Below are positions 2,338 to 56,361 of a DNA stretch of 64,000 nt, one piece after another (the stretch's first letter is position 1; each line of letters begins with the position of its first letter). The translations under genes and the position numbers were made by a program. The stretch is from positions 1,522-65,521 of the forward strand of contig JBAQGA010000239.1 in the NCBI GenBank assembly GCA_049287565.1, in the 5' to 3' direction. A model generated the notes under the pieces. It ran no database searches, was not told the DNA's origin, and saw nothing but the letters and a program-made list of their open reading frames with translations. The DNA is from Candidatus Aminicenantales bacterium (GTDB lineage: Bacteria > Acidobacteriota > Aminicenantia > Aminicenantales > UBA8522).

Positions 2338-2817
2338 TCATCGATGGATGATCGTGCTGACCCTGGCCCTGACCCGGTGGTCCTGGGGGTTCGAGATCAA
2401 GTCGGCCTCGTTGGCGCCGAAGGCCTCGGCCGTAAAGACGAGGACCTGCACCTGCCAGGCGGTTCCGTAGGTCACGACATCGGTGATCCGGCGGTAATCG
2501 TTGAGGTTGTCCTGGTTGAGATCGATGAGCTCGTCTCTGAAAAGGTCGTTGGTGCCGTCGTTGTTAAGGTCCACAGCCGCGCTCGAAGCCACCAGGCTCA
2601 ATTCGGCCGCGGTCAGGTTCCTGAGCACATCGATCTGCTGCTGAACCAGGAAGGAGGCGGTCGTGATCCGGTCGGAACGCATGTTGTTCAGGACGCTCAA
2701 GGTGAACATCTGGGCGAGCCCGAGGATGGCGATGGCGACGAGGGCGATCCCGATGACCGACTCCAAAAGGGTGAAGCCCGCTTTGTTGTTTTTCTCTTTG
2801 CGCAATCTTTTCATCAT
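2338..2817 (-). CDS. pilV: Type IV pilus minor pilin PilV-like
   Basis: Leader MKRLRKEKNNKAG followed by FTLLESVIGIALVAIAILG, a prepilin signal. The start was chosen at an internal Met that has an upstream GGGGGAGAG ribosome-binding site. Confidence 0.75.
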   Translation of the reverse strand: MMKRLRKEKNNKAGFTLLESVIGIALVAIAILGLAQMFTLSVLNNMRSDRITTASFLVQQQIDVLRNLTAAELSLVASSAAVDLNNDGTNDLFRDELIDLNQDNLNDYRRITDVVTYGTAWQVQVLVFTAEAFGANEADLISNPQDHRVRARVSTIIHR

Positions 2818-2838
2818 GCTCTCCCCCATCCTTGTATC

Positions 2839-3330
2839 CTAGGTCGACTTGATGTACTGAACGGAGCCGCCCGCGAAGGTCATGATTGTCCGCGTGCTCG
2901 GCTGGTTCTGCAGGCTTAGAGTCGGGTTCTGAATGGAAATACTATTCAGGGATGTGCTGTAGTTCAGGACCATCCCCAGCGGCGAATAGATACACTGCTG
3001 GTTGGGCAGGCTGACCGTGACGGTGTATTTAGAGGGGATGGACCTCCGGATGTAACCCGGGACCTCCAGCCAGATGTTGTACTGGACCTCGCGCTCGAGA
3101 TAATAAACCCATGTCCCGGAGGTGTTATCAAATGTGATCCGGTGATTGAGCTTGGTTTTGACGGCCTGGAACTTGGCCTGCTGGAGGGTCGTCAGGATCT
3201 CCCTGGCCTCGTTCTCCAGGTTCCTCACCTCGAGGGAGCTCTTGATATTCGGATAGGACACCATCAGCAGGACTCCGATGATGGCGATGACCAGTAAAAC
3301 TTCGATGAGTGTAAAGCCGCGTTGTTTCAT
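2839..3330 (-). CDS. FimT/GspH-like type IV minor pilin (pseudopilin)
   Basis: Leader MKQRG|FTLIEVLLVIAIIGVLL. First gene of the minor pilin operon. The long ORF was trimmed to the Met preceded by a GGGTGGGAGA ribosome-binding site. Confidence 0.7.
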   Translation of the reverse strand: MKQRGFTLIEVLLVIAIIGVLLMVSYPNIKSSLEVRNLENEAREILTTLQQAKFQAVKTKLNHRITFDNTSGTWVYYLEREVQYNIWLEVPGYIRRSIPSKYTVTVSLPNQQCIYSPLGMVLNYSTSLNSISIQNPTLSLQNQPSTRTIMTFAGGSVQYIKST

Positions 3331-3687
3331 TCTCCCACCCGCTTCAGGGAGCCGGCCCGACGGCCCTCTGGTAGAGTACCCCGTGCTTCCCATTTCCCTG
3401 GAAATTCCGCACAAATCATCCTCTACCACGTATTGTAAAGTCTTTTACGGTCTAATTCAAGCCATCCGTCCTCTGCTCAATCAACCGGCCTAGAGATCCA
3501 TCAGGAATGGACGGTATTATTTATCGTTCTTATCCTTATTAATAGCAATCCCCCCCGGCGATGATTCGGGTGAGCATAATTCCTTCCAAGTTCTCCCCCT
3601 TCAGCCGTCTCCCTCTCACCCCCATCGGCTAGCCACGATCCGGGCCTCTGTCAGCGAACGGATTTTCCAATCGGTTTTCATCTCTGT

Positions 3688-3693
3688 TATAAT
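3688..3693 (+). promoter_or_regulatory. Candidate -10 hexamer TATAAT upstream of the P-type ATPase
   Basis: A perfect TATAAT lies 38 nt upstream of the preferred ATG at 3731. The -35 is weak (TTCCAA with a 17-nt spacer). The longest ORF start (3692) overlaps this hexamer, which argues for the downstream start. Confidence 0.3.
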
Positions 3694-3730
3694 GGGCGGC
3701 TATCCGGACTTCACTAGAAAAAGGCAAACC

Positions 3731-6493
3731 ATGCAGATCCCCGCCTGGCACGCCGAAGACGTGGTCAAGGTCCTCCACCGCCTCCGTTCTGATCCGCGAC
3801 AAGGATTGGCCACCGAAGAGGTCGAAAAACGCCTGACTCAATTCGGCCCCAACGAGCTCAGGAAAGAGGAAAAAGCCTCTCCTTTCTCGCTTTTCCTCAG
3901 CCAATTCAAAAACGTACTTATCATCATCCTCCTCGCCGCCATCGTCCTCTCCGTCCTGATCGGGGAGGTCCTGGATGCCGTGATGATCAGCGCCATCGTC
4001 CTGTTCAGCGCCCTGCTCGGTTTCATCCAGGAGCACAAGGCCGAACAGGCTCTCGAGGCTCTCAAGAGGATGCTTTCGCCGATGATCACCGTCCTGCGAA
4101 ACGGGAAAGAAGAGGAGATCCCTTCTCGAGACCTGGTCCCGGGGGACATCCTTCTCCTCGAGGCCGGGGATAAGATCCCGGCGGATGCCCGACTGGTCGA
4201 GGTCCATCTGCTCGACTGCGACGAGGCCGCCTTGACGGGAGAGTCGGTCCCGGTCCGAAAAGAAACGGCTCCCCTCCGCTCCGATATTCTGGCGAGCGAC
4301 CGGAAGAACATGGTCTTCGCCGGGACGATCGTGACCTACGGACGGGGGAAAGCCGCCGTGACCGCGACGGGCATGAACACGGAATTCGGCCGGATCGCCG
4401 AGGAGGTCGCGGCCGCCGAAACCAAGAAAACACCGCTTGAGAAAAGGACGGAAGAGATCGGCCGATGGCTGGGCATCATGGCCGTATCGATCTGCGTTCT
4501 CGTGGCCGGGGTCAGTGCCCTCAGAAAGGCTTTTATCGGCCGGCTTAGCCTGGAATTCATGATCGACACGGTCATGTTCGCCGTCGCCCTGGCGATTGCC
4601 GCCGTCCCGGAGGCGCTGACGGCCATCGTGACGGGCGCGTTGGCCATCGGCATGCACCAGATGGCCAAACGCAATGCCCTGGTGCGCAAAATGCCCGCCG
4701 TGGAAACTCTGGGCTGCGCGACCGTCATCTGCTCGGACAAGACGGGGACCCTGACAAAGGGAGAGATGACGGTCCGGAAGATCTATGCCGCCGGGAACGA
4801 CCACGAGGTCAGCGGCGTCGGCTACGAACCCGTCGGGGAAATTCTGGGGGCAGAAAAGAAACCGGACCCCGACAGCCCCTTGGGAAGACTTTTCAAGGCG
4901 GCCCTGCTCTGCAACGATGCCCAGCTTCAAGAGATCGAGGGAAAGTGGACGATCAAGGGTGATCCGACAGAGGGCGCCCTGGTCGTGGTCGCAGCCAAAG
5001 CCGGCCTTCATGTGATCGAGACGAGGTTGAGTCACCCCCGCATCGAAGAGATCCCCTTCAGTTCGGAACGCAAGCGGATGACCACCATCCACGATGAGCC
5101 CGATGGCCGCAGGATCGCCTACCTCAAGGGCGCGCCCGAAGAGATTCTCGACCGCTGCCGCTTCCACTTGACCGAAAAGGGCGTCCTCCCCTTCTCGACG
5201 GAGGAAAAGGAAGCGGCTCTCGAGGCCAACCGGGGAATGGCTCAAGCGGCTCTGAGAGTCCTCGGCATGGCCATGAAATTCTTGCTGGCCGAGCACACTC
5301 GCTACTCGGAAGAAGACGAGCGGGGAATGGTTTTCCTCGGCCTGATCGGAATGATGGATCCCCCCCGGGCCGAAGCGATCGAGGCGGTCAAGACCTGCCA
5401 ACGGATCAAAATCCGAACGGTCCTGATCACCGGCGACCATGAAATCACCGCCCGGGCCGTGGCCGAGGAAATCGGGATTTACAGGGAGGGCGACCTCGTT
5501 CTGAACGGAGAAAAACTGGCCGCGATGAACGAGGGAGATCTTGAGAAAGTCGTCGACCGGGTGACCGTCTACGCCCGGGTTTCGCCGATCGATAAGCTCA
5601 AGATCGTCAGGGCATGGAAAAGCCGGGGTGAAGTTGTCGCGATGACGGGTGACGGGGTCAACGACGCCCCGGCCCTCAAGCAGGCGGATATCGGTATCGC
5701 CATGGGAATCACCGGCACCGAGGTGACCAAGGATGCGGCCGACCTGGTCCTCAGCGATGACAATTTTGCCACCATCCTGAAGGCCATCGAGAGGGGCCGC
5801 TGGATCTACGATAACATCAAGAAATATCTGACCTACCTGTTGCGCTGCAACATCACGGAGGTCGCCGTCATCGGCGGCATCGTCCTCATCAAAGGCCCCG
5901 ATTATCTCCCTCTCCTCGCGGCGGCGATCCTTTACATCAACCTGGCCACGGACGGACTGCCCGCCCTGGCCCTCGGCATCGCCCCGCCGGAACCCGATAT
6001 CATGGAGCGGCCGCCTCGAGATCCCCGGGAAAGCGTTTTTTCCTGGGATGTCAAAGCGTTCATCCTCATGGCCTTGGTGATCGAAACGCCCTTTTTCTAC
6101 CTGCTTTTTTTTCATGATTTTTCACACCTGGAACACGCCCGGACAGAGATCTTTTTCATGTTCATCATCGTCGAGCTGGTCATCGTTCTCAACTTCCGCT
6201 CGCTCAGGTTTAGCATCTTCAAGGTTCCGCCCCACCGCTGGCTGATTCTGGCCATTCTTTGGGAGCTTGTTCTTGTCTCTGTTCTTGTCCGGATCCCTTC
6301 GGTGCGAGATGCTTTTGGCATTCTTATCCCGACGATTTCCGACCTGGGGATCATCTTCGGGTTCAGTATTTTTGTCTTTGCGGCCATGGAGATTGCGAAA
6401 GCGGCGCTGCGGAGGAAACTCGCCCGGGCGGACCGCCGCGACGGCCTCTCCGAGCGCGGCGGAAGGGCATCGAAATCATCCGCTAAGGACTGA
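3731..6493 (+). CDS. P-type (E1-E2) cation-transporting ATPase, P2-type, probably Ca2+
   Basis: DKTGTLT phosphorylation motif (ICSDKTGTLTKGEM). TGDGVNDAPALKQADIGIAMG hinge motif. A PEAL motif in TM4 and ten predicted TM segments. About 920 aa. Confidence 0.9.
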   Translation: MQIPAWHAEDVVKVLHRLRSDPRQGLATEEVEKRLTQFGPNELRKEEKASPFSLFLSQFKNVLIIILLAAIVLSVLIGEVLDAVMISAIVLFSALLGFIQEHKAEQALEALKRMLSPMITVLRNGKEEEIPSRDLVPGDILLLEAGDKIPADARLVEVHLLDCDEAALTGESVPVRKETAPLRSDILASDRKNMVFAGTIVTYGRGKAAVTATGMNTEFGRIAEEVAAAETKKTPLEKRTEEIGRWLGIMAVSICVLVAGVSALRKAFIGRLSLEFMIDTVMFAVALAIAAVPEALTAIVTGALAIGMHQMAKRNALVRKMPAVETLGCATVICSDKTGTLTKGEMTVRKIYAAGNDHEVSGVGYEPVGEILGAEKKPDPDSPLGRLFKAALLCNDAQLQEIEGKWTIKGDPTEGALVVVAAKAGLHVIETRLSHPRIEEIPFSSERKRMTTIHDEPDGRRIAYLKGAPEEILDRCRFHLTEKGVLPFSTEEKEAALEANRGMAQAALRVLGMAMKFLLAEHTRYSEEDERGMVFLGLIGMMDPPRAEAIEAVKTCQRIKIRTVLITGDHEITARAVAEEIGIYREGDLVLNGEKLAAMNEGDLEKVVDRVTVYARVSPIDKLKIVRAWKSRGEVVAMTGDGVNDAPALKQADIGIAMGITGTEVTKDAADLVLSDDNFATILKAIERGRWIYDNIKKYLTYLLRCNITEVAVIGGIVLIKGPDYLPLLAAAILYINLATDGLPALALGIAPPEPDIMERPPRDPRESVFSWDVKAFILMALVIETPFFYLLFFHDFSHLEHARTEIFFMFIIVELVIVLNFRSLRFSIFKVPPHRWLILAILWELVLVSVLVRIPSVRDAFGILIPTISDLGIIFGFSIFVFAAMEIAKAALRRKLARADRRDGLSERGGRASKSSAKD

Positions 6494-11319: not shown

Positions 11320-13083
11320 GTGGACGTGGCTGAAACAGAGACATCTCCCATCGACCAGGTCCAGAGAGACAAGGCCAAAGAGATCCTCCTCGTTATGGTC
11401 AACACCATCTCTGCGGCCAAGCTCTTCCCCTCTGATCATCAGACGGTCGTCAATTTCATTTCCGACTTGCATAAGCATCTGACTCGATACCTCGATGTGT
11501 ACTGGAAACTGGAGCTCGTCATCGAGGAACACGCCTTCAACCTGGGAAGAGAGAGGATCTACGAGGACCCCCACCCGGTGAAGAGCCTTCCCTTTTTCTT
11601 CTTCAAGGACGGGATGCAGAGGCTCTATTTCTATAAAGGCCTGACCAGGGAAGAACTCAGGGAATTCCTGGAGACGATGCGGGCGGTTTCCCAGCTTCCC
11701 CCGGAAGAGGGCGATATCGTCACCGCCCTCTGGGAGAAGGATTTCGCCAACATCCGTTACCTCGCTCCCGATGATTTCCTGGAGACAAGGATCGGGGTTG
11801 GCCGCCCCTCGCTGCGGCCGAGAGTGGACGGGACCAGTCTCAGCCGGGGCCGGATCGATCTCGATCCTGAGGACCTGAAGGACATGAAAAGATATGGCCA
11901 GGCTTTATTGGCCTCAGAAACAAAGCCTCCTGAAAACACCCCAGCGGAAGGGGCCTCGAGCATGACCACTTCATCTGAAGACAGCGGGGCGAACGAAATC
12001 GAGGCCCTCCTTCAGTCCAGCCGTCGGGTCTCCCCAGAAGACGAATATCTTAACCTGGTGGTGGAGCTGATCTACCTTGAGGACCGGGCAGATCACTTCC
12101 CGGCGATCGTCGATGTCCTGGAGCAATATCACCAGGATATCATGGCCAAAAAAGATTTCGCCAAAGCGGCCGCCCTGATCCGCGCCCTCTCCGAGATCAG
12201 GGACCGCATTGCCAAAAAAGACAAACCCAAGTCCGAGCTGATCGGCCGCGTCATCAGCCTGTTAAGCAGAAAGAGCGTTCTGGTCGAACTTCAGGCGACG
12301 CTCGACCTCAGCTCGGTCAACGACCTGGACGGGCTTTTTGCCTATTTGAAATTGTTCGGCTCGGATGCGGCCGGTCTCCTTGCCGATATCTACGAGCGGG
12401 TCAGGAGCGCGGAATGGCGCGACAAGGCTCTGGAGATGCTGACGAAGATCGGGCAGGACGATATCCAGAAACTGGGAGCCTTGATCCAGGAATCAAGGCC
12501 GGCCCTGAGTCAGGAGATCATCCGCCTCTTGAGAGAGAGCCAAAATAGGCGGGTCGCTACGTTGTTGGCCAATGTGGTGAGTTACAAAAATCCGGCCATC
12601 AAGCTGGCCGCCATCAGGGCTCTCGGAGAGATCTCGAGCGAGGCGGCCAACAAGATCCTGTTGGGATTCCTCTCCGACCCGCACGAGGACGTCCGGATAA
12701 CCGCCCTCGACAACTTAAAGAAGGCTGAAGACAAGCCGCTCATCTCTCATATCACCGGGCTTGTCTCCGAAAAGAATTTCGTCAAAAAGAGCGCCCGCGA
12801 GAAAAAAGCGCACTTCGATTTCCTCGGCCGGAGCGACAGTGAAGAGGCCTGCGCATTTCTGGCCGGTATCCTCGGAAAGGTTCCGTTTCTGCCGAACGCG
12901 AGACATACCGAGCTTTGTCTCTACGCCGTCTCCGCGCTGGCGGGGATGAAGCGTCCGAGATCGCTGGACATTCTGAAAGAAGGGAGCAAGCGCCGCAGCT
13001 TGAAGATTCGCAACGCCTGCCTCAAGGCTCTTCAATCCAGATCAGAGATTCCCATCACCTACACGGGAAGGATGCCGCAATGA
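11320..13083 (+). CDS. HEAT/PBS-lyase repeat protein with an N-terminal DUF3391-like domain; function unknown
   Basis: C-terminal half made of HEAT-like repeats (AIKLAAIRALGEI, EDVRITALDNL). The N-terminus resembles the N-domain of the downstream HD-GYP protein. The start codon is uncertain (GTG at 11320 lies too close to the putative -10; the first in-frame ATG is at 11395). Confidence 0.5.
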   Translation: MDVAETETSPIDQVQRDKAKEILLVMVNTISAAKLFPSDHQTVVNFISDLHKHLTRYLDVYWKLELVIEEHAFNLGRERIYEDPHPVKSLPFFFFKDGMQRLYFYKGLTREELREFLETMRAVSQLPPEEGDIVTALWEKDFANIRYLAPDDFLETRIGVGRPSLRPRVDGTSLSRGRIDLDPEDLKDMKRYGQALLASETKPPENTPAEGASSMTTSSEDSGANEIEALLQSSRRVSPEDEYLNLVVELIYLEDRADHFPAIVDVLEQYHQDIMAKKDFAKAAALIRALSEIRDRIAKKDKPKSELIGRVISLLSRKSVLVELQATLDLSSVNDLDGLFAYLKLFGSDAAGLLADIYERVRSAEWRDKALEMLTKIGQDDIQKLGALIQESRPALSQEIIRLLRESQNRRVATLLANVVSYKNPAIKLAAIRALGEISSEAANKILLGFLSDPHEDVRITALDNLKKAEDKPLISHITGLVSEKNFVKKSAREKKAHFDFLGRSDSEEACAFLAGILGKVPFLPNARHTELCLYAVSALAGMKRPRSLDILKEGSKRRSLKIRNACLKALQSRSEIPITYTGRMPQ

Positions 13084-14531
13084 CCCCTCCCCACGAAGAA
13101 CAGCCCCACCTCGACAAAACCAAGGCCCGCCACCAACTGGCCGTAGAGATGATCACCCGTCTGAACGTTATCCTCAAGGGCGCTCGCATCTACGAGCCGA
13201 ACAACCTTCTTTTCCAGCGCCAGGTGAGCCTCTTCCTGATGCTCCTCAGGAAGGCACTGAAGGATTCCGGAGAAGCGTCCTTTGCGGTCCGCGGGAACAC
13301 CCTATTCTTCAATAACATTCGGCTGAAGTATGGGTTTGCCAACTACCATTTTTTCAAGTTCGTCCTCGAAGAGTTTCGCAAGAAACAGCTGGGAGCGATC
13401 CGGTTCGAACCCGAAGTCAGCGAAGACGACCTCGGGACCATGATGATCATCTGGGCAAAGGGGGATTCCCAAACCGTGCATCCTTATGATGCCCTGGTCG
13501 CTGAGGCCGGGAAAAGGGGCGTACGCCACATCGCTGTTGATAAGATGATCGCTTCCGACCTGAACAGAAGCAAGGAGGAATCCGCCGCCAAGATCTTTTT
13601 CCTGGGGATGACCCACCTTGAAGAAGCCTTCGAGGGCGGTGTTCGCGAGGAAAGGTTCCACCTGGGCACAACCCGCCGCCTGATGCAGTCGATCTTCAAC
13701 CACATCTCCGACCATGAGGCCTTCGTCCAGGGCCTGACCAATATCAAGAACTTCCATGAATACACCCTCAATCATTCCATGAACGTCTGCATCCTCTCTG
13801 TGGCTCTGGGAAGGCGTTTAGGGCTCGACCGGAACGAGCTCGTCGATCTGGGGATAAGCGCCTTCTTCCATGACTTCGGCAAGCTGGACACACCGAAGGA
13901 AATCCTGGACAAACCGGGCAAGCTCAATGACCAGGAGCGCGAAATCATCGAAAAGCATCCCTGTCAGGGAGCGGGAAAGCTGATCCAGTTCAAGGAGTTC
14001 AAGAACCTCCCCCTTCAGGCGATCCAGGTCGCCCTGGAACACCACGTCAAGGAGGACATGACGGGCTATCCTCGCTACTTCAAAAAGCAGTCGATCAACC
14101 TGTTCAGCAAGATCGTCAAGATCGCCGACTTTTTCGACGCCGTCACCACCCCGCGTGTCTACCGAACCAAGCATTTTACCAGGGACGAAGCCCTAACGAT
14201 GATGCTCGCCCAGAGCGGCAAGGAGTTCCATCCCCTCCTTCTTCGGGAATTTGTCAAGATGATGGGCGTTTATCCCGTCGGCTCGCTCGTCGGCCTTGAC
14301 AGCCTGGAACTGGCCGTCGTCGTCGAAAATAACCCGGATACAGTCCTGCTGCTGCGGCCGAGGGTAAAGCTCATTGCCGACGCTTCAGGGAATAAGATAG
14401 ACGGCGAAATCGTCGACCTGAGCGAAGTCGATCCGGAGACCAGGAAGTTTGTTCGAACCATCGTCAAGGTTCTTGATCCGGATAAGTACGGCATCCGAGT
14501 GGCCGATTATTTCCTGGCCCGGGCCATGTGA
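13080..14531 (+). CDS. HD-GYP domain c-di-GMP phosphodiesterase with N-terminal DUF3391-like domain
   Basis: HD motif FFHDFGKL. HHVKEDMTGYPRY (HD-GYP signature). Overlaps the HEAT gene stop by 4 nt (ATGA). Confidence 0.8.
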   Translation: MTPPHEEQPHLDKTKARHQLAVEMITRLNVILKGARIYEPNNLLFQRQVSLFLMLLRKALKDSGEASFAVRGNTLFFNNIRLKYGFANYHFFKFVLEEFRKKQLGAIRFEPEVSEDDLGTMMIIWAKGDSQTVHPYDALVAEAGKRGVRHIAVDKMIASDLNRSKEESAAKIFFLGMTHLEEAFEGGVREERFHLGTTRRLMQSIFNHISDHEAFVQGLTNIKNFHEYTLNHSMNVCILSVALGRRLGLDRNELVDLGISAFFHDFGKLDTPKEILDKPGKLNDQEREIIEKHPCQGAGKLIQFKEFKNLPLQAIQVALEHHVKEDMTGYPRYFKKQSINLFSKIVKIADFFDAVTTPRVYRTKHFTRDEALTMMLAQSGKEFHPLLLREFVKMMGVYPVGSLVGLDSLELAVVVENNPDTVLLLRPRVKLIADASGNKIDGEIVDLSEVDPETRKFVRTIVKVLDPDKYGIRVADYFLARAM

Positions 14532-44114: not shown

Positions 44115-46298
44115 ATGTCCATGTCTGAAACTATCGTTCTGGATATCAACAATCGGCCCCTTTCTATAGAGATCGGAAAGATCGGTCGGCAAGCCGATGG
44201 CTCCGCGCTGGTCCGTTACGGCGAGACCATCATGTTCTGCACCGCGACCTCGAAAAAAGAGGTCAAGGAAATGCGCCCGTTCCTGCCGCTGATCGTCGAT
44301 TACCGGGAAAACACCTATGCCGCCGGAAAGATTCCGGGCGGTTTTTTCAAGCGTCAGGGCAGACCTTCGGAGAGAGAGATCCTGGTCAGCCGTCTGATCG
44401 ACCGTCCGGTCCGTCCCCTTTTCCCGGAGGGATATTTTTTTGACACCCAGATCGTCGCCCTTCTCCTCTCCGCCGACCTGGAGAACGAGCCCGATACGCT
44501 GGGCGTCATCGGCGCTTCCGCGGCTCTCTATTTTTCCGATATCCCTTTCACGACACCATTGGGAGCGGTCAAAGTGGGGCTGGTCGACGGCCAGTACTTG
44601 ATCAATCCCACAGCCGCCCAGCTCGAAAAAAGCCCCCTCAGCATGGTCGTCGTCGGCACTGATCAGGGGATCATCATGATCGAAGCGGTGGCCCTCGAGG
44701 TCGAGGACGAGAAGGTCGTCGAGGCCGCCACCCTGGCCCTGGAGCCAATCCGCCGGATCATCGAGGCCCAGAAGGATCTCTTCCGGAAACTCTCCATCAA
44801 GAAACGTGAGTTCACGGTCAAGACCGTGGATAAGGCCAAGGCCGAACAGACAGAGCAGCGGGTCAGCGCCGACCTTCTCAAGGCCATCCAGACCCCTGAG
44901 AAAAAAGCCAGCGAGGCCGAATCCAACCGGATCCTCAAGGCGCTGATCGAGGAAATTCCGCCCGAGAACGAGGAAGAGATCAGCACCACCAAAGAGATCT
45001 TCTACAACCTCGAGAAAAAGTTGGTCCGCGACCTGGTCTTGAACCAGGGCAAGCGCGCGGACGGCCGCGGATTCGACGAGATCAGGCCGATCTCCATCGA
45101 AGTGGGGCTCCTCCCCCGCACCCACGGCTCCGCCCTGTTCACCCGCGGCGAGACCCAATGTCTGGCGACGGTCACTCTGGGGACCTTCGAGGATGTCCAA
45201 AGGCTGGACGGTCTTGGAGAAGAGGCGGAGAAACGGTTCATGCTCCACTATAATTTTCCGCCGTTCTCGGTGGGTGAAGTCTCCTTCCTGCGCGCCGCGG
45301 GGAGGCGGGAGATCGGACACGGCGCCCTGGCCGAAAAATCGATCCTGCCCTCCATCCCCGACGCCGAAATTTTTCCCTATACGATCCGCATCGTCTCCGA
45401 CATCCTAGAATCCAACGGTTCTTCTTCCATGGCCACGGTCTGCGGCGGTGTCCTGGCCTTGATGGATGCCGGAGTGCCTCTGTCCATGACCGTTGCCGGC
45501 ATCGCCATCGGGCTGGTCACAGAAGGATCCCGGTATGCGCTCCTGACGGATATCGCCGGCCTGGAAGACCACCTCGGGGACATGGACCTCAAGGTCACGG
45601 GTACCGAAAAGGGGATCACGGCCATTCAGCTCGACCTGAAGATCCCGGCCATCGGCCTGGAGATCTTACGCGAAGGCTTGGTCAAGGCCCGGAATGCCAG
45701 GCTGGAAGTCCTGGCCAAGATGAAGGAAGCGCTTTCTGCGCCACGTCCTGAGATATCCCCTTATGCGCCCCGGATCCTGACCCTCTTCATCAACCCCGAA
45801 AAAGTGAGCGAGGTTATCGGGCCGGCCGGAAAGGTCATCAAGAAGATCATCGCCGCCACTAAAGCGAAGATCGACATCGAAGAGGGCGGCAAGATCATCA
45901 TCGCCTCCACGGATGTGGAGGCTGCCGAAAGGGCCAAGGAGATGATCCGCGAGATCACCATCGAGGCCGAGGTCGGCAAGGTCTACAACGGGAAGGTCGT
46001 GCGCATCGAAGAGTACGGCGCCTTTCTCGAGATCCTCCCCAATATCATCGGGCTTCTCCACGTCTCCGAAATCGCCCATCACCGGATCCGGAGCGTCCGC
46101 GACGTCCTCAAGATGGGTCAAATGCTCGAAGTCAAGGTCATCAGCATCGACGAGGACAACAAGGTCCGGGTGAGTCGCAAAGCCCTCGAGGAACCGCCCG
46201 CTTCGATGCCGGATTCCGACCGCGGCGGGGATCGCTTTCCGGGGCGGAAGCCACATGACCGGAATCCCCGGGGACCGAGAAATAGATCCCGATTTTGA
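44115..46298 (+). CDS. pnp: Polyribonucleotide nucleotidyltransferase (PNPase)
   Basis: Two RNase PH domains, a KH domain and an S1 domain. 727 aa with a short basic C-terminal tail. Conserved rpsO-pnp order. Confidence 0.95.
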   Translation: MSMSETIVLDINNRPLSIEIGKIGRQADGSALVRYGETIMFCTATSKKEVKEMRPFLPLIVDYRENTYAAGKIPGGFFKRQGRPSEREILVSRLIDRPVRPLFPEGYFFDTQIVALLLSADLENEPDTLGVIGASAALYFSDIPFTTPLGAVKVGLVDGQYLINPTAAQLEKSPLSMVVVGTDQGIIMIEAVALEVEDEKVVEAATLALEPIRRIIEAQKDLFRKLSIKKREFTVKTVDKAKAEQTEQRVSADLLKAIQTPEKKASEAESNRILKALIEEIPPENEEEISTTKEIFYNLEKKLVRDLVLNQGKRADGRGFDEIRPISIEVGLLPRTHGSALFTRGETQCLATVTLGTFEDVQRLDGLGEEAEKRFMLHYNFPPFSVGEVSFLRAAGRREIGHGALAEKSILPSIPDAEIFPYTIRIVSDILESNGSSSMATVCGGVLALMDAGVPLSMTVAGIAIGLVTEGSRYALLTDIAGLEDHLGDMDLKVTGTEKGITAIQLDLKIPAIGLEILREGLVKARNARLEVLAKMKEALSAPRPEISPYAPRILTLFINPEKVSEVIGPAGKVIKKIIAATKAKIDIEEGGKIIIASTDVEAAERAKEMIREITIEAEVGKVYNGKVVRIEEYGAFLEILPNIIGLLHVSEIAHHRIRSVRDVLKMGQMLEVKVISIDEDNKVRVSRKALEEPPASMPDSDRGGDRFPGRKPHDRNPRGPRNRSRF

Positions 46299-46318
46299 GC
46301 GCACACGACGAGGCAGTC

Positions 46319-46840
46319 ATGCCCGGTCTCAGACAGAGAAAGAAAAAGGGGTTTACTCTTGTCGAAATGCTGATCACCCTGACCATCCTGGCCATCCTGG
46401 CCGCCGCGGTCATGCCCCTCGCCAAGGTCGCCGTCAAGCGGGAAAAGGAGATCGAGCTGCGTCGCAACCTCCGGTTCCTCCGCGAGGCCATCGATGCGTA
46501 TAAAAAGTTGGCCGATGAAAAAAAGATCGAGGTGGAGGAGGACTCCGAAGGTTATCCGCCCGATCTGGAGACGCTGGTCAAAGGGGTCGAGGTGAAAGCG
46601 GACCAGTCGCAAGCCCTTCCCGGGGCCGGCCAGCCGCCCACCAAATCCAGTGATGAAAAAAAGATCGTCAAATTCCTGCGGCGCATACCCAAGGACCCGA
46701 TGACAGATTCCATTGATTGGGGACTTCGTTCCTACCAGGACGAACCCGATGATGAAGTCTGGGGAGGCGAAAATGTCTATGATGTTTATACCAAGAGCCC
46801 AGGGACGGCCCTGGATGGCTCGAAGTACCGGGAATGGTGA
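46319..46840 (+). CDS. GspG-like (T2SS major pseudopilin family) prepilin-type protein 1
   Basis: Leader MPGLRQRKKKG|FTLVEMLITLTILAILAA. C-terminal GspG-like DPMTD...W...YDVY...DG..Y.EW. The pnp stop lies within the first few codons of the long ORF. Confidence 0.7.
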   Translation: MPGLRQRKKKGFTLVEMLITLTILAILAAAVMPLAKVAVKREKEIELRRNLRFLREAIDAYKKLADEKKIEVEEDSEGYPPDLETLVKGVEVKADQSQALPGAGQPPTKSSDEKKIVKFLRRIPKDPMTDSIDWGLRSYQDEPDDEVWGGENVYDVYTKSPGTALDGSKYREW

Positions 46841-50803: not shown

Positions 50804-52258
50804 TTAGTACGCTCTGGCGAATAAAACCAGGTTGCGACCTTTCTTGCGGCAGCAAACGCAGTCTCCTACGTTTTCTTCTTTGTTTTTCTTTAGAGGGATC
50901 ACTCGGACGGTGGCCATCGTCTCTTCTTTGATGCGATCCTCACAGGACGTATCGCCGCACCACCAACTTCTGATGAATCCTCGTTTGGACTCGATGACTT
51001 CCTTGAACTCGTTGTAATCAGAAACAACCCGAGTGTTTTCCCTTAGAAACCGGAGCGCCTGAGCGAACAGGGACGCCTGGATCTCTCCAAGCGTTTCTTT
51101 GACCCGCGGGGCCAGCGCCGCCAGATTGGCAAATTCTTTTTTCTGGACATCCCGGCGAACCAGGACGGCGCGGTTCTCCTTGATATCCCTGGGCCCGATC
51201 TCAATCCTGAGCGGGACCCCCCGCATCTCCCATTCGGAGAATTTCCAGCCCGGGGTGAATTCCTCTCGGGCATCGAGCCGGACCCGCCAGCCGGCCTGTC
51301 GGAGTTCCTGCTCGATGGCCAAAGCGGCCGGGAGGACGTTCTCCTTCCAGTTACCCAGCGAGATGGGGACGACGACGACTTGGACTGGAGCCACCTGCGG
51401 TGGGAGTCGCAATCCTGAATCGTCCCCGTGGGTCATCACCAGGGCGCCTATCAAGCGCGTCGACATCCCCCAGGACGTCTGCCAGACATACTGCAGTTTC
51501 TGTTCGCGGTCCTCGAAACGGATGTCAAAGACTTTGGAGAAGTGCTGACCGAGGTTGTGCGATGTGCCCATCTGGAGGGCTTTGCCATCCGACATCAACG
51601 CTTCGATGGCATAGGTCTCCAGCGCCCCGGCGAATTTTTCCCGGAGCGTTTTGCGGCCTTCGACCACGGGTATGGCCAGCTCCGACTCAACAAATCCCTT
51701 GTAGAGAGAGAGGATCTTAATGGTCTCTTCCTGGGCTTCATCGAACGTCTCGTGGGCCGTGTGCCCCTCCTGCCAGAGGAACTCAGTTGTCCTGAGAAAT
51801 GGCCGGGTGACCTTTTCCCAACGCACAATATTGGCCCACTGGTTGATCAGCACCGGAAGGTCCCGGTAAGAATGAATCCACTTGGCGTACATCGAGCCGA
51901 TGATGGCCTCGGATGTCGGCCGGACGGCCAACCGTTCCTCCAACTCTTCCTGGCCTCCCCGGGTGACCCAGGCGACCTCCGGGGCGAATCCTTCCAGATG
52001 CTCCATCTCCTTCTTGAGGAAGCTTTCCGGGATAAATAGGGGAAAATAGGCGTTGACGTGCCCGCTCTCTTTGATCCGTCTATCCAGCAGCCGCTGGATG
52101 TTTTCCCAGATCGAGTAACCGTCGGGCCGGATGACCATCATGCCCTTCATCGGGGCATAGTCCGCCAGCTCCGTTTTGCGGATGATCTCTAAATACCAGC
52201 GGGAAAAATCCTCGCTCTTGGCGGAAATTTTCTTGACAAACCGTTCGTCCTTGACCAC
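50804..52258 (-). CDS. proS: Proline--tRNA ligase, archaeal/eukaryotic type
   Basis: Class II aaRS motifs. C-terminal Zn-binding domain with a terminal Tyr (...CCRKKGRNLVLFARAY). Lacks the bacterial-type INS editing domain. 484 aa. Confidence 0.9.
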   Translation of the reverse strand: MVKDERFVKKISAKSEDFSRWYLEIIRKTELADYAPMKGMMVIRPDGYSIWENIQRLLDRRIKESGHVNAYFPLFIPESFLKKEMEHLEGFAPEVAWVTRGGQEELEERLAVRPTSEAIIGSMYAKWIHSYRDLPVLINQWANIVRWEKVTRPFLRTTEFLWQEGHTAHETFDEAQEETIKILSLYKGFVESELAIPVVEGRKTLREKFAGALETYAIEALMSDGKALQMGTSHNLGQHFSKVFDIRFEDREQKLQYVWQTSWGMSTRLIGALVMTHGDDSGLRLPPQVAPVQVVVVPISLGNWKENVLPAALAIEQELRQAGWRVRLDAREEFTPGWKFSEWEMRGVPLRIEIGPRDIKENRAVLVRRDVQKKEFANLAALAPRVKETLGEIQASLFAQALRFLRENTRVVSDYNEFKEVIESKRGFIRSWWCGDTSCEDRIKEETMATVRVIPLKKNKEENVGDCVCCRKKGRNLVLFARAY

Positions 52259-52396
52259 GCATCACTCCAGGTTGCGATTTCCGGTTCATTCTATTCGCCG
52301 CCCTTTTCTTTGTCAAGAAACATGGCGGTTGCTCCGGACCGTTGATGAAAAGGGTAAGGGGGTGAGGGAAGGCATCACGGTGCGGCGAAAAAAAAT

Positions 52397-52440
52397 TCAC
52401 CCCTCGTTTCATCCAAAGGGGTGATTGACCCCTCTATAAG
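52397..52440. promoter_or_regulatory. Array of CACCCCT/AGGGGTG half-sites (inverted and direct) in the proS/PilZ divergent intergenic region
   Basis: TCACCCCT-N12-AGGGGTGA followed by TTG-ACCCCT-C-TATAAG. Operator-like palindromes overlapping a possible -10 (TATAAG) for the PilZ-LuxR genes. Confidence 0.3.
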
Positions 52441-52482
52441 GGCATGGCAAAGTGAACACCGAAAAAGGAAAAGGAAGCGAAG

Positions 52483-52842
52483 ATGTTATCGAAATCCTCG
52501 CCATTTCAGCCTGAAAAAACCGAAAGGAAAGACCAGATCTTCAACCTGCCTCTTCCCACCGTCGTCGAAGGCCGCAACGCCGCAGGGAAAGCATTCCAGG
52601 AGAAAACCGTCCTCTTCTACATCAGCCATCACGGCGCTTCGTTCAACCTGTTCAACACCATTGCCTTGGGCTCGAAGCTGAAATTGATCATCGACCTCCC
52701 TCCCTCTCTGGCCGATGACAAGAACCTGAAACTCGTTATCAATGGGAAGGCGGCATTGGTCGAGGCCAACCATTCGCATCCCTCGAAGCAGCGAGTTTCT
52801 CTGCGCTTCGAAAACAAGTATTTCATCAAAGCCGCCGGATAA
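52483..52842 (+). CDS. PilZ-like domain protein 1 (degenerate c-di-GMP-binding motifs)
   Basis: AAGGAAG ribosome-binding site. Shares the L.LP....EG....G..F.E.T....IS..GA.F.L......G..L.L.IDLP pattern with the two paralogs below. KxxxK replaces RxxxR. 119 aa. Confidence 0.55.
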   Translation: MLSKSSPFQPEKTERKDQIFNLPLPTVVEGRNAAGKAFQEKTVLFYISHHGASFNLFNTIALGSKLKLIIDLPPSLADDKNLKLVINGKAALVEANHSHPSKQRVSLRFENKYFIKAAG

Positions 52843-52909
52843 GAAAATGGCCTCTCCGACTTCTCCTCGGGGGAAACTCGGGGGGAGCGCTGAGGCCTAA
52901 TCGTTTTGG

Positions 52910-53389
52910 ATGACGAAAATGTCAAAAAAATCACCCTGCGATTCACCGCCAAGAGGGATTGTCCTCTTGGAGAGCACCGGGGATAATGACTTTCCGAACA
53001 TGGAAGAAAAGCAAGAGACCCTAAAACCCTCCATCCACGGCGCTTCCAAGGCCGGGAAGAGGGAGCGTGCTTTCGAGCTCTCTCTTCCCGCCTTGGTAAC
53101 CGGCCTGGATGCCATGGAAAACAGGTTTCGCGAGAAAACCCTGATCAGCTCGATCAGCGCCGAGGAGGCCACCGTCTGGCTTCGCTCCCCGGTGACGATC
53201 GGAGCCAAGTTGGACATCTCGTTGGATATTCCGAAGACATTGATCTTGGAGAATAGCCTCAAACTGCAGTTGTCCGGGACCGTCAGACTCGCCCAGATAG
53301 ATTCCACGCGGCTCGGGAAAAAGCAGCTGGTCTCGCTGCAGTTGGACAAGAAATTCAAACTCCTGCCCATCCCGCCGAATATCAATTAG
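52910..53389 (+). CDS. PilZ-like domain protein 2 (degenerate)
   Basis: Same paralogous fold pattern (FELSLPALVTGLD...ISSISAEEATVWL...GAKLDISLDIP). 159 aa. The N-terminal RxxxR motif is degenerate (KRER). Confidence 0.5.
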   Translation: MTKMSKKSPCDSPPRGIVLLESTGDNDFPNMEEKQETLKPSIHGASKAGKRERAFELSLPALVTGLDAMENRFREKTLISSISAEEATVWLRSPVTIGAKLDISLDIPKTLILENSLKLQLSGTVRLAQIDSTRLGKKQLVSLQLDKKFKLLPIPPNIN

Positions 53390-53593
53390 CCCCTTTTTTC
53401 CTGTCTGCGTCTCAGTCAACACGGGAACTCGGCCTTATAAAAAAGCCATTTCAGGTGCGGAACAGCCCAAGGCGAGCTTATGGATGAACCTTTACTTGAC
53501 AAGAAGGAAGTGATTTAATAGAATTTCGCCGGACCAAGAGTGAGAGTGGATATTCCGACGTTGGGGTTAAGACATATAAAGAGTGAGTGAGAT

Positions 53594-54280
53594 ATGAGCA
53601 AGAAAACCATCTCGACGGAAGAGAAAAAAATCAAGATCCTCATTTTCTGTCCTTCAGAGATCATTCTTTCGGGGATCTTGAAAGCCATGGAGGCGGATGC
53701 CGGCATCGAGATTTCCAACGTCGAAAAGAACACCATCGACAGCTTCATGGAATCCATCCGAAAGCTGCGCCCCCAGGTCATCCTCTTCGCCAACACAGAG
53801 CCCTTGCCCAACATGCGCGAGATCTGCAAGGCTATCAAGGAGATCTCCAAGCTCCAGAGCAAATCGCAGCTGCTGATCCTGGGAAGCATCCCCTCTCACG
53901 AGGAAATCGTCGGCTTGATCAACGCCGGCGCCAGGGGATATTTCGACCTGACCGACCCGGCCGGTCAGCTCTCCGAGGCCATCCGAGTCATCCATAAAGG
54001 AGAGATCTGGCTCCCCCGGGACAAGATGAGCAGCATCATGGACAGGATCATCTCCGTCGTCGGCCGGGACCTCAAAGAGAAAACGCTGGACCAGCTCACG
54101 CCTACGGAGTTTCAAGTCCTCCGGCTCATCGGCCAAGGGAAGAGCAACGATGAGATCGCCGAGATCCTGTTCATCAGCAAGAACACGGTCCGGTCGCATA
54201 TCAAGAGCATCTATGCCAAGCTGGACACGCACAGCCGCCTCCAGCTGGCCCTGTATGCCATCAATTCCGCCCTGTTTTAG
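53594..54280 (+). CDS. LuxR/NarL-family transcriptional regulator with a degenerate (pseudo-)receiver domain
   Basis: C-terminal LuxR HTH (LTPTEFQVLRLIGQGKSNDEIAEILFISKNTVRSHIKSIY). The N-terminal receiver-like fold lacks the acidic pair (FCPSE), the phospho-acceptor Asp (ILFANTEP) and the conserved Lys. Confidence 0.75.
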   Translation: MSKKTISTEEKKIKILIFCPSEIILSGILKAMEADAGIEISNVEKNTIDSFMESIRKLRPQVILFANTEPLPNMREICKAIKEISKLQSKSQLLILGSIPSHEEIVGLINAGARGYFDLTDPAGQLSEAIRVIHKGEIWLPRDKMSSIMDRIISVVGRDLKEKTLDQLTPTEFQVLRLIGQGKSNDEIAEILFISKNTVRSHIKSIYAKLDTHSRLQLALYAINSALF

Positions 54281-54303
54281 CAGGGAGTCAAACAGAGGTT
54301 GTG

Positions 54304-54708
54304 ATGAAAAAAGCCCAGCGACCCAAAAAGGAAGAGGCCATTCCTTCCATCCAGGCCAACCGGCGGAGAGAATGGCGACTCGACCTGCCGCTCTCGACGA
54401 TCATCGAAGGACGGCTTCCCCACGGCGCGAAATTTTCGGAGACGACCACCCTCGAGAATATCAGCTCCGCCGGAGCCTACTTTTGCCTCGACTCTGGTGT
54501 CGTCGTCGGCTCCCGGCTCAACCTCATGATCGATCTGCCCAAGAACCTCACCGGCGGAAGGGAGATCAAGCTCAACCTCGGCGGGATCACGGTCCGCCTC
54601 GAGGAACCGGACAAGAAAGGCAAGCGGCAGGGTGTTGCCATCCGTTTCAGCAAGGACTTCAAATTCGTCGAGCCCGGCAAGAAAAAGAAAAAAAAGAAAG
54701 CGAAATAG
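54304..54708 (+). CDS. PilZ domain protein 3 (canonical c-di-GMP-binding motifs)
   Basis: RRREWR (RxxxR) and ENISSAG (D/NxSxxG) motifs. Poly-Lys tail. 134 aa. AGAGG ribosome-binding site. Confidence 0.75.
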   Translation: MKKAQRPKKEEAIPSIQANRRREWRLDLPLSTIIEGRLPHGAKFSETTTLENISSAGAYFCLDSGVVVGSRLNLMIDLPKNLTGGREIKLNLGGITVRLEEPDKKGKRQGVAIRFSKDFKFVEPGKKKKKKKAK

Positions 54709-54715
54709 CACCCCA

Positions 54716-55399
54716 GTGTCCATACTGACTGTGGCTCTGACGGGGGGCATTGCCACCGGAAAATCCGTCGTCGCCAATCTCTTGGCCGATCATGGCTGTT
54801 TTGTCCAATCGGCCGATCGGTTGGCCCATGAGCTGATGACGCCCGGCCGGCCGGCATGGCGCCAAATCGTGGCCCATTTCGGAACAGACATTCTGAATTC
54901 CGATCGGACCATCAACCGCACCCGCCTGGGAACGATCGTCTTTGGCTCGGCCCAGGAAAGGCAGTTCCTGAACAGGCTTATCCATCCTCTCGTCCTGGCA
55001 AAAAAGAAGACGGCCATCCGGACGCTCGAAAAAAAAAGCACTCATAAGATCTTCGTATCCGAAGCGGCCCTGACCATCGAATCGGGATTCGCTCCCTTCT
55101 TCGACAAGGTCATCGTCGTCCACTGCCCGGAAAGACTTCGGGTCGAGCGCCTGATGAAGAGGGACGCGATCACGCGGCGCGAAGCCTGGAAAAGGATTCG
55201 CAGCCAGATGCCGACGAGCGAGAAGATCAAGCAGGCCGATTATCTCATTAAAACGACGGGCTCAGCGGACGAGACCGCCGCCCAGACCGATCGGGTGTAC
55301 GAGAATCTGCTGGCGGATTTCCGGAAGAAACGAGCGCATGAGAAAAGGCGTCAGGCTAGGAGCCGGCCGCGAGCGCGGCGGCGAGCAGCGGGACCATAA
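54716..55399 (+). CDS. coaE: Dephospho-CoA kinase
   Basis: P-loop ALTGGIATGKS near the N-terminus. CoaE fold length. Inferred GTG start (the long ORF's N-terminal extension overlaps the PilZ gene). Basic C-terminal tail. Confidence 0.75.
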   Translation: MSILTVALTGGIATGKSVVANLLADHGCFVQSADRLAHELMTPGRPAWRQIVAHFGTDILNSDRTINRTRLGTIVFGSAQERQFLNRLIHPLVLAKKKTAIRTLEKKSTHKIFVSEAALTIESGFAPFFDKVIVVHCPERLRVERLMKRDAITRREAWKRIRSQMPTSEKIKQADYLIKTTGSADETAAQTDRVYENLLADFRKKRAHEKRRQARSRPRARRRAAGP

Positions 55400-56261
55400 T
55401 CTCGTGGTGCCCGATGAAATAGAATCCCCTCCCCTTTTTTCCCACGGCCCGGCGGACGACGTTCTGCTCCGGACGATAGTGATGGAGGAAATCGAACACG
55501 GCGGTGGAGAATTTTTCGAGCTTCGCACCTCTGTTTCGGACGTAGCTCAGCGCCTTTAAAAAGACTTCGGGGAGGACGACGGCCGAACCGATGTTGATAA
55601 AGACCCCGCCGCCCTCGAGCTTTTCCAGTAGCGAGCAGAAGAGGAAGAAATCGGTCAACGATGTCTTGCCCAAAGCTTCTCCGCTGGCCCCGGGATGGAA
55701 GTGGATGGTATCAGTCCCGATGGCGACATGGACGCTCACCGGAATCCCGAGCTCGTGGGCGGAAAAAAGCAGGCTGAGATATCTGTAGGGAAAATGGGAA
55801 TCGGCCATCATCCGACCGACCGCCTCGCCCAATCCGATTCCCTGCACGGCCCCTCTTCTGATGGCCTTGTTCAACAGCTCTCCCGTCTCCCGGGCCATCC
55901 CGAACTTACCGGATCGGAGCTGGGCCCCGACGTCCTCGGAGGTACGGCCGCAAAAGGCGATCTCGAAATCGTGAATGATGCCGGCTCCATTGAGCGCGAT
56001 CCCCGTGATCCAGCCGTCCTTCATCAGGCGGATGAGGACGGGATTGAGTCCTACTTTGATGACGTGAGCGCCCAGGGCAAAGAGGATGGCCCTTTTCTTC
56101 CTCCTGGCCGTTTGCAGAAGAGCGAGGAAGTCTTTGAAGTCCTTTCCGGCCAGGATATTCGGCAGGCCGTCGATGAAGCCGGCCAAACGCTCTTCGGGCT
56201 CGAATGGTTTGGCAAAATCCCGGACATCCACCTTGCTCGGCCGATCAAGAAGGCTGTGCAT
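55356..56261 (-). CDS. Deoxyhypusine synthase-like (DS family) protein
   Basis: Rossmann-like GxG segments (GIALNGAGIIHD, GGGVFINIGSAVV) resembling deoxyhypusine/homospermidine synthase. About 300 aa. Convergent 44-nt overlap with coaE. Confidence 0.4.
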   Translation of the reverse strand: MHSLLDRPSKVDVRDFAKPFEPEERLAGFIDGLPNILAGKDFKDFLALLQTARRKKRAILFALGAHVIKVGLNPVLIRLMKDGWITGIALNGAGIIHDFEIAFCGRTSEDVGAQLRSGKFGMARETGELLNKAIRRGAVQGIGLGEAVGRMMADSHFPYRYLSLLFSAHELGIPVSVHVAIGTDTIHFHPGASGEALGKTSLTDFFLFCSLLEKLEGGGVFINIGSAVVLPEVFLKALSYVRNRGAKLEKFSTAVFDFLHHYRPEQNVVRRAVGKKGRGFYFIGHHEIMVPLLAAALAAGS

Positions 56262-56361
56262 GTTCAGCCCGGATGAGCCGAAGCGCTGTGGCCCTCGAGT
56301 GTTCCGGCGATGACGGGGCAAGTATCGCGGACGGTCGGATCGCGCTCTCGGCACTGGCCGC

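Follow-up and report, generated by a model that had tools for sequence, protein, structure and literature searches.

A conserved cluster of three PilZ paralogs around a LuxR-family pseudo-receiver regulator in Aminicenantes: a candidate c-di-GMP-linked transcription module

Introduction

How might a cyclic di-GMP (c-di-GMP) signal be passed to a transcription regulator whose receiver domain lacks the residues needed for phosphorylation? The question is raised by a four-gene cluster in DNA from Candidatus Aminicenantales bacterium (GenBank assembly GCA_049287565.1), in which genes for two PilZ-like proteins (A and B), a NarL/LuxR-family regulator (luxR) and a third PilZ protein (C) follow one another on the forward strand. 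The whole stretch analysed, referred to as the window, comprises 64,000 nucleotides of contig JBAQGA010000239.1 (positions 1,522 to 65,521), and coordinates are counted from its first letter. An earlier note, made from the sequence alone, had proposed that the cluster encodes a transcriptional switch that responds to c-di-GMP and needs no phosphorylation, A and B being possible adaptors or decoys, a proposal that fits the data given below and is plausible. The cluster is present in every Aminicenantes species locus recovered. It is read here as a lineage-specific c-di-GMP-linked transcription module of two units, in which C would signal to the regulator; as a whole chain this reading is tentative, and somewhat more likely to fail at one of its steps than to hold throughout.

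Results

The PilZ paralogs

The three small proteins of the cluster (119, 159 and 134 amino acids) had been described in the earlier note as PilZ-fold paralogs, which was borne out by sequence comparison and by modelling. In pairwise BLASTP, A and C were 36% identical (E 2e-21), B and C 34% (E 5e-17), and A and B 32% (E 4e-17), and in hhalign comparisons of profiles built from the species orthologs, A matched B with a probability of 99.7% (E 8e-27) and C with a probability of 99.65% (E 4e-25). The Pfam family PilZ (PF07238) matched C only, at 23.9 bits against a cut-off of 22.5; most C orthologs have a precomputed PF07238 match, and in public records C is named 'PilZ domain-containing protein' and B 'hypothetical protein'. 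For A and B, zero Pfam or NCBIfam matches were returned, even at E ≤ 10. The Pfam check proposed in the earlier note thus gave PilZ for C and GerE for the regulator, and failed for A and B and for the Response_reg family.

Profile hidden Markov models built for each of the three ortholog groups returned zero PilZ matches among PDB sequences, which places the three in a divergent PilZ branch, and the fold was therefore assigned through AlphaFold2, Foldseek and paralogy. In an AlphaFold2 model of B built from a 37-sequence alignment, the N-terminal 48 residues were disordered and residues 50-155 formed a six-stranded all-beta domain with a predicted local distance difference test (pLDDT) score of about 90. 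The top Foldseek matches of this model were the PilZ domains 5vx6, 4rt1, 4xrn and 5ej1, and the solved structures nearest to it were MotI/DgrA, Alg44, PA4608-type proteins, BcsA, MrkH and MapZ. On the strength of this model, B is a PilZ-fold protein; A is assigned the same fold through its homology to B and C.

For motif counts, genes were taken by position from the loci described below and then aligned (78 C, 72 A and 66 B). C of the window carries R22xxxR26 and N53-I-S55-S-A-G58, and R22, R26, N53, S55 and G58 were present in 78/78 C orthologs. At the same sites, A of the window reads RKDQI and YISHHG. The A orthologs lack RxxxR, the position of the second Arg (26) being Gly in 54 of the 72, and their second motif is Y/F-x-S-x-x-G, with Ser in 72/72 and Gly in 63/72. 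B of the window reads KRERA and SISAEE; its orthologs have Lys at 22 and Ser, Ala or Thr at 26, with a basic K-R-E-R cluster in a shifted register, and a second motif [SGA]-x-S-x-x-E in which Glu replaces Gly (64/66). The combination of RxxxR with (D/N)xSxxG that marks a canonical c-di-GMP receptor was accordingly found in C only, as the earlier note had read from the window, and on these motifs C is predicted to bind c-di-GMP. Since A and B each keep their degenerate state throughout the ortholog group, these states are old and under selection rather than products of decay. They are also complementary: A keeps the xxSxxG half without the Arg motif, and B keeps K-R-E-R with Glu in place of Gly. 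This raises the idea that A and B may form a composite site or may recognise a different ligand.

C is a basic protein, with a median isoelectric point (pI) of 10.1, a net charge of about +14 and Lys-rich N- and C-terminal tails among 77 orthologs. In the window, C has a basic N-terminus, and its C-terminal sequence GKKKKKKKAK includes seven lysines in a row. Such basic tails bear on one alternative, namely that the PilZ proteins are nucleic-acid-binding co-regulators in the manner of MrkH or PlzA and that c-di-GMP-loaded C binds DNA beside the regulator. MrkH is found among the structural matches of B, and it is a PilZ-domain DNA-binding activator encoded beside a LuxR-type gene (PMC3161979, PMC5055493). 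However, MrkH needs two PilZ-like domains, whereas A, B and C have one each (119-159 amino acids) and do not share its di-domain architecture; a DNA-binding motif was not detected in the PilZ proteins, and RxxxR loops are often surrounded by basic tails as well. This alternative is considered quite improbable.

The regulator

The regulator carries a GerE helix-turn-helix (HTH) domain at residues 166-222 (PF00196, 73.2 bits) and has no Pfam Response_reg match. It aligned over its full length with LiaR/VraR (5hev, E 2e-23), and end to end with DevR and NarL. In the alignment to 5hev, the DD pair is replaced by C19-P20, the phospho-acceptor Asp by A66, the Thr by G97 and the Lys by L119, and these replacements are fixed in 77-81 of 81 orthologs. 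Because all catalytic residues of the receiver are replaced, the domain is a pseudo-receiver and the protein is not a phosphorylatable response regulator. The earlier note had described a receiver without the acidic pocket, the Asp and the Lys, and had named an intact D-D-D-T-K set in a proper alignment as the result that would overturn this; with the residues replaced in such an alignment, the description stands. An AlphaFold2 model of the regulator (pLDDT 72) showed a regular (βα)5 receiver, a long helix α6 at residues 142-163 and a four-helix HTH, and its nearest structures in Foldseek were LiaR, VraR, RcsB and NarL. When 1.84 billion representative proteins were searched, the regulator family formed one cluster, and the next full-length relatives were about 35% identical and carried W-[IV]-x-R where the regulator has WLPR.

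Between receiver and HTH, the regulator resembles VpsT, in which W[F/L/M][T/S]R is the motif for binding c-di-GMP and K120 contacts c-di-GMP (PMC7288161). Using a VpsT sequence verified against 3kln, GEIW139-L-P-R142 aligned in register with DEMW131-L-T-R134 of VpsT. WLPR was invariant in 81/81 orthologs, its Pro at position 3 departing from the VpsT motif, and E128 (Glu in 77/81, Asp in 4/81) aligned with K120, so that the Lys is also missing. The extra α6 helix of VpsT-type proteins is present in the model, where it directly follows W139-L-P141 with moderate confidence (pLDDT 54-81). Vibrio cholerae QstR and Vibrio vulnificus BrpT carry WLPR and act independently of c-di-GMP, and the substitution P129T makes QstR c-di-GMP-dependent (PMC6237807).

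These data bear on a second alternative, in which c-di-GMP would be received, as in VpsT, by the regulator itself through W139 and R142, with the PilZ proteins as accessories. The exact alignment of the Trp and the Arg, the modelled α6 and the W-[IV]-x-R of the nearest outgroup relatives would agree with it. Against it stand the Pro in all orthologs, the variant that abolishes c-di-GMP dependence in QstR and BrpT (PMC6237807), the Glu in place of K120 and the rank of VpsT, only 15th among the structural matches, the structural search bringing the regulator no closer to VpsT than to ordinary NarL-family proteins. The alternative was largely rejected on the Pro and the Glu, and is very unlikely. 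By analogy, the regulator is predicted not to bind c-di-GMP itself and would group functionally with the phosphorylation-independent, α6-dimerising LuxR/CsgD-type proteins. Given this c-di-GMP-independent form of the motif, a PilZ protein is the only obvious point at which c-di-GMP could enter.

Two cysteines of the pseudo-receiver are invariant or nearly so, C19 (53648-53650, 80/81), which occupies the place of the first acidic-pocket Asp, and C78 in α3 (53825-53827, 81/81). A redox or metal input is possible, as in RitR-type aspartate-less regulators. In a third alternative, the pseudo-receiver senses redox state or a metal through these cysteines and its link to c-di-GMP is one of co-expression only; redox control through Cys has been documented in aspartate-less regulators, RitR being one (PMC12632262). 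Nothing indicates, however, that the two cysteines are spatially close or exposed, and the three PilZ genes would be left unexplained. A cysteine-based input in place of the PilZ link is very unlikely.

Conservation across Aminicenantes

GTDB species genomes were scanned once with the regulator, which gave 80 loci, all from Aminicenantes-type metagenome-assembled genomes (MAGs). In 72/80 loci, the regulator was preceded by two PilZ-like genes and followed by one; of the remaining 8, 7 were cut off upstream and 1 had extra PilZ-like matches (3 upstream, 2 downstream). The A-B-luxR-C arrangement, whose conservation the earlier note had proposed to examine by comparative genomics, was thus present in 73/73 Aminicenantes species loci with enough upstream sequence. 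Several public MAG records with an Aminicenantes-type locus (L001, L006, L008, L014, L034 and others) are titled Eubacteriales, Clostridiales, Terriglobales or Desulfaltia; these titles probably misstate the taxonomy.

Median identity to the window was calculated for 49 complete loci. The regulator as a whole reached 81%, its residues 136-228 (53999-54280) 98% and its receiver part 72%, compared with 75% for HU, 72% for ProS, 66% for C, 54% for CoaE, 46% for B and 42% for A. The regulator was conserved above ProS and HU in 49/49 loci, a constraint that is unusually strong for a transcription factor.

Promoters and operator

Upstream of A, the window contains a perfect inverted repeat, TCACCCCT (52397-52404) - N12 - AGGGGTGA (52417-52424), whose arms are 100% complementary. 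It lies within an operator-like element for which the column consensus of 65 loci spans 38 bp, AAtaTCcCCC-N4-tTTCAtC-N-ttAGGGGTGATTGACC, and ends in the -35 box TTGACC. GGTGATTGA was found in 68/68 proS-A intergenic regions, and the reverse complement of the divergent proS promoter, TTGTCAAG, in 63/68. Taken in the window alone, the inverted repeat does not exceed chance (expected 0.11; at least 1 match in 11/100 shuffles), and its significance therefore derives from its conservation across species. The CACCCCT/AGGGGTG half-site array noted earlier can be described as a perfect inverted repeat plus a third half-site, GGGGTGA, the repeat lying within an element conserved across species; the third half-site is kept in the close relatives L001-L007. 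The putative A-B promoter was identified by reading the sequence; across loci its -35 box is invariant and its -10 box is nATnnT-like, and it is missed by a strict consensus scan. In the window, the A promoter has ATTGACCCCTC (52424-52434) as its -35 region, which agrees at 10/11 positions with the left half-site, ATTCACCCCTC (52395-52405); the -35 box may therefore double as a fourth half-site in the clade of the window.

Per kb, the heptamer TCACCCC occurs 5.8 times in the proS-A spacers, 3.5 times in the B-luxR spacers and 0.12 times in the other 830 kb of the loci, where its frequency equals the random expectation; this corresponds to enrichments of 48x and 28x in the two spacers, respectively. 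As the heptamer is at background outside the two spacers, no wider regulon could be defined; in the whole window 10 copies were found and 11 expected, without enrichment. Many of the more distant species (L027, L030, L031, L039, L054, L055, L057, L060, L062, L063, L067) carry CTCACCCCCC-CTCACCCC, a direct repeat in tandem, at a distance of about 5-30 bp upstream of the luxR -35 box. The absence of this tandem repeat upstream of luxR in the window's own clade suggests a gain or a loss of autoregulation within the class. The heptamer resembles the NarL site TACYYMT, a likeness that fits the NarL-family HTH being invariant across the clade, and we infer that the regulator binds the heptamers.

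The near-consensus luxR promoter (TTGACA...TAGAAT/TATGAT) is kept in nearly all of 66 loci. Across loci, the gap between the luxR stop codon and the C start has a median of 20 bp, and neither a promoter nor a terminator was called between them. With the coaE gene following 7 nt after C, luxR-C(-coaE) is probably one transcript. The 5′ untranslated region of luxR contains two copies of AAGAGTGAG (53536-53544 and 53579-53587), the second just before the start codon. An Rfam search covering the window in full and a more sensitive one of the cluster detected no riboswitch, c-di-GMP riboswitches included, and no other RNA family, their only two matches being chance-level miRNA.

The operator at the A promoter also agrees with a fourth alternative. 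According to it, the regulator is constitutively dimeric and controlled by its abundance, like QstR and BrpT, and transcribes the PilZ genes, whose products have no contact with the regulator and act on other targets (pili, secretion, polysaccharide synthesis). Enzymes or motors are the partners of most single-domain PilZ proteins characterised, pseudopilin and HD-GYP genes lie within the same 64 kb, and WLPR regulators work without a cofactor (PMC6237807). Control of this kind leaves unexplained why a canonical PilZ gene stands 20 bp from the regulator in 78 species, and why the pseudo-receiver, with its invariant α4-β5 stretch, has been retained about as faithfully as ProS. A regulator that only transcribes the PilZ genes is the main alternative, though on balance a somewhat unlikely one.

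Other features of the window

The coordinates of the cluster, its regulatory elements and the other features are collected in Table 1. The cluster stretch has a G+C content of 0.52, compared with a window average of about 0.58. The position of coaE after C is constant in all loci; it is probably on the same transcript as C, yet outside the signalling module. Between coaE and the HU gene, a 332-residue open reading frame (55356-56354, reverse strand) has no Pfam match and is found in only part of the related loci.

An HD-GYP phosphodiesterase and two pilin or pseudopilin gene sets had been noted elsewhere in the window; HD_5 matched the former, and prepilin-type N_methyl proteins were found at two places. 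The HD-GYP gene (about 38 kb away) and the pilin genes lie 6-50 kb from the cluster, the nearest about 6 kb away, and no linkage to it was seen, which is to be kept in mind in any functional reading. An open reading frame at 11320-13083 was considered as a phosphodiesterase and rejected, since it encodes a HEAT-repeat protein; its end overlaps the beginning of the HD-GYP gene by 4 bases, and the two are probably a translationally coupled pair. A single TCACCCC at 3616-3622 lies between the pseudopilin genes (2338-3429, reverse strand) and a P-type ATPase gene (3692-6493), at chance frequency and with no partner half-site seen.

Table 1. Positions of the genes and regulatory elements in the 64,000-nucleotide window
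Feature	Position	Strand	Description
Prepilin-type N_methyl protein	2338-2829	-	
Prepilin-type N_methyl protein	2839-3429	-	
HD-GYP gene	13080-14531		HD_5, 81 bits; HDFGK...HHVKEDMTGYP
Prepilin-type N_methyl protein	46295-46840	+	
proS	50804-52258	-	Divergent to the cluster
proS promoter	52288-52316	-	TTGACA-N17-TAGAAT; consensus scan 11/12
Distal heptamer (third half-site)	52359-52365	+	GGGGTGA
Operator-like element	52393-52430	+	AAtaTCcCCC-N4-tTTCAtC-N-ttAGGGGTGA; abuts -35 TTGACC (52425-52430)
Putative A-B promoter	52425-52453	+	TTGACC - 17 nt - CAAAGT; TGG before the -10 box (extended -10-like)
PilZ paralog A	52483-52842	+	119 aa; non-canonical (no RxxxR; Y/F-x-S-x-x-G); 72 orthologs
PilZ paralog B	52910-53389	+	159 aa; alternative starts 52919 and 53000; non-canonical (K-R-E-R cluster; S-I-S-A-E-E)
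luxR promoter	53496-53524	+	TTGACA-N17-TAGAAT; near-consensus, scan 11/12
luxR (NarL/LuxR-family regulator)	53594-54280	+	228 aa; pseudo-receiver, W139-L-P-R142, GerE HTH
PilZ C (canonical)	54304-54708	+	134 aa from ATG; 135 aa from GTG at 54301
coaE (dephospho-CoA kinase)	54716-55399	+	Pfam CoaE, 165.6 bits; 7 nt past C

Discussion

In the proposed module, the first unit would be A-B, encoding two PilZ-fold proteins without c-di-GMP-binding residues from a promoter whose -35 box is abutted by the TCACCCC inverted repeat, and the second would be luxR-C(-coaE), transcribed from a near-consensus sigma-70 promoter and encoding the non-phosphorylatable regulator followed, 20 bp on, by the canonical PilZ protein. 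By analogy with QstR and BrpT, the regulator would dimerise and bind DNA without c-di-GMP. It would bind the TCACCCC heptamers and so control A-B and, in many species, its own promoter as well. The c-di-GMP signal would enter through C, which would contact the regulator, most likely at the conserved pseudo-receiver surface, and change its activity. A and B, without canonical c-di-GMP binding, would be signal-independent modulators or competitors of the contact between C and the regulator. That C signals by such a contact is the weakest link of the chain and is proposed by analogy; precedents are found in HapZ, which binds the receiver of SagS, and in the mrkH-mrkI operon.

Several points weigh against this module. 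PilZ proteins mostly act on non-transcriptional targets. C passes the Pfam cut-off only marginally and has no sequence match to a solved PilZ structure. The order pcm (-), proS (-), A (+), B (+), luxR (+), C (+), coaE (+) and HU (-), with the 332-residue frame (-) before HU in part of the loci, is equally constant. As synteny is no weaker for proS, pcm, coaE and HU than for the cluster, conserved order alone cannot prove coupling; it may stem from a generally stable region. Residual-distance (mirror-tree-like) correlations among the receiver, A, B and C were positive (0.26-0.56), but the correlation of the receiver with HU was equally high and the control design forces negative correlations among the reference proteins, so that these values lend the module no clear support. 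Finally, the B-luxR spacer of the window itself contains no heptamer.

Among the closest known systems is mrkH-mrkI of Klebsiella pneumoniae. As in the cluster, a PilZ gene there lies beside a FixJ/LuxR-type gene, the regulator (the LuxR/CsgD-type MrkI) lacks the working c-di-GMP motif of VpsT, and a degenerate PilZ-like module joins a canonical one; mrkH and mrkI are co-transcribed, as is probable for luxR and C (PMC3161979, PMC5055493). The Klebsiella activator MrkH combines two PilZ-like domains in a single DNA-binding protein, whereas three separate single-domain proteins are encoded here, with the regulator gene preceding that of the canonical PilZ protein, no adjacent EAL gene, and in an unrelated lineage. 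The Vibrio LuxR-CsgD-type proteins VpsT, QstR and BrpT likewise combine a receiver-like domain with a GerE HTH, dispense with phosphorylation and carry a four-residue motif at the start of α6, which here is WLPR exactly as in QstR and BrpT (PMC6237807). Only the C-terminal 110 residues align with them, however (BLASTP, 34% identity); the Vibrio proteins retain the Asp that is Ala here, K120 of VpsT is Glu, and a PilZ partner is not known for them.

In HapZ-SagS of Pseudomonas aeruginosa, a stand-alone canonical PilZ protein has a receiver-fold target, as is proposed here for C (bioRxiv 10.1101/2020.02.11.943704). The target of HapZ is the functional receiver of a hybrid kinase rather than the pseudo-receiver of a transcription factor, and the system has neither degenerate paralogs nor a gene adjacency of the kind found in the cluster. 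A and B resemble non-canonical PilZ proteins such as the PA2960/XAC1133 PilZ proteins and XCC6012, which have the fold without RxxxR and D/NxSxxG and serve as protein-protein adaptors; non-canonical members account for over 17% of all PilZ proteins with a single domain (bioRxiv 10.1101/2020.02.11.943704). A and B showed no sequence relation to those clusters in the searches done and are recent-looking paralogs of a canonical PilZ protein at the same locus. The regulator itself resembles the aspartate-less regulators (ALRs) and pseudo-receiver (PsR) regulators, which have a receiver fold without the phospho-acceptor and other catalytic residues, coupled to a DNA-binding output, and pseudo-receivers are common (PMC4395418, PMC12632262).

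The components are therefore all of known kinds: non-canonical PilZ proteins, a pseudo-receiver, a WLPR regulator and a PilZ/LuxR pair. Their combination, three single-domain paralogs, one of them canonical, around a fully aspartate-less WLPR regulator with a heptamer operator, conserved class-wide, is undescribed in the literature found, and none of the matches listed by literature searches that paired Aminicenantes with PilZ or c-di-GMP mentions Aminicenantes. According to a 2025 review in the Journal of Bacteriology, the activation mechanisms of PsRs 'remain a mystery', and PilZ is absent from its text (PMC12632262).

The cluster suggests a new way to feed a second-messenger signal into a DNA-binding regulator. 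In a bolder form of the proposed module, phosphorylation would have been replaced throughout the class by c-di-GMP-loaded C acting in trans and docking on the pseudo-receiver, while A and B, under the control of the regulator, would compete for that surface, giving a three-PilZ partner switch with feedback. This fuller scheme is unlikely to be right in all its parts; if true, it would add a hitherto undescribed mechanism by which pseudo-receivers are controlled. With a canonical PilZ gene 20 bp downstream of a WLPR regulator gene, the module offers a concrete and testable candidate for pseudo-receiver switching. The families of A and B, until now 'hypothetical' and without a Pfam model, are given a fold and a likely role. 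For the uncultivated Aminicenantes, the operator and a regulator more conserved than ProS would provide a first regulatory handle.

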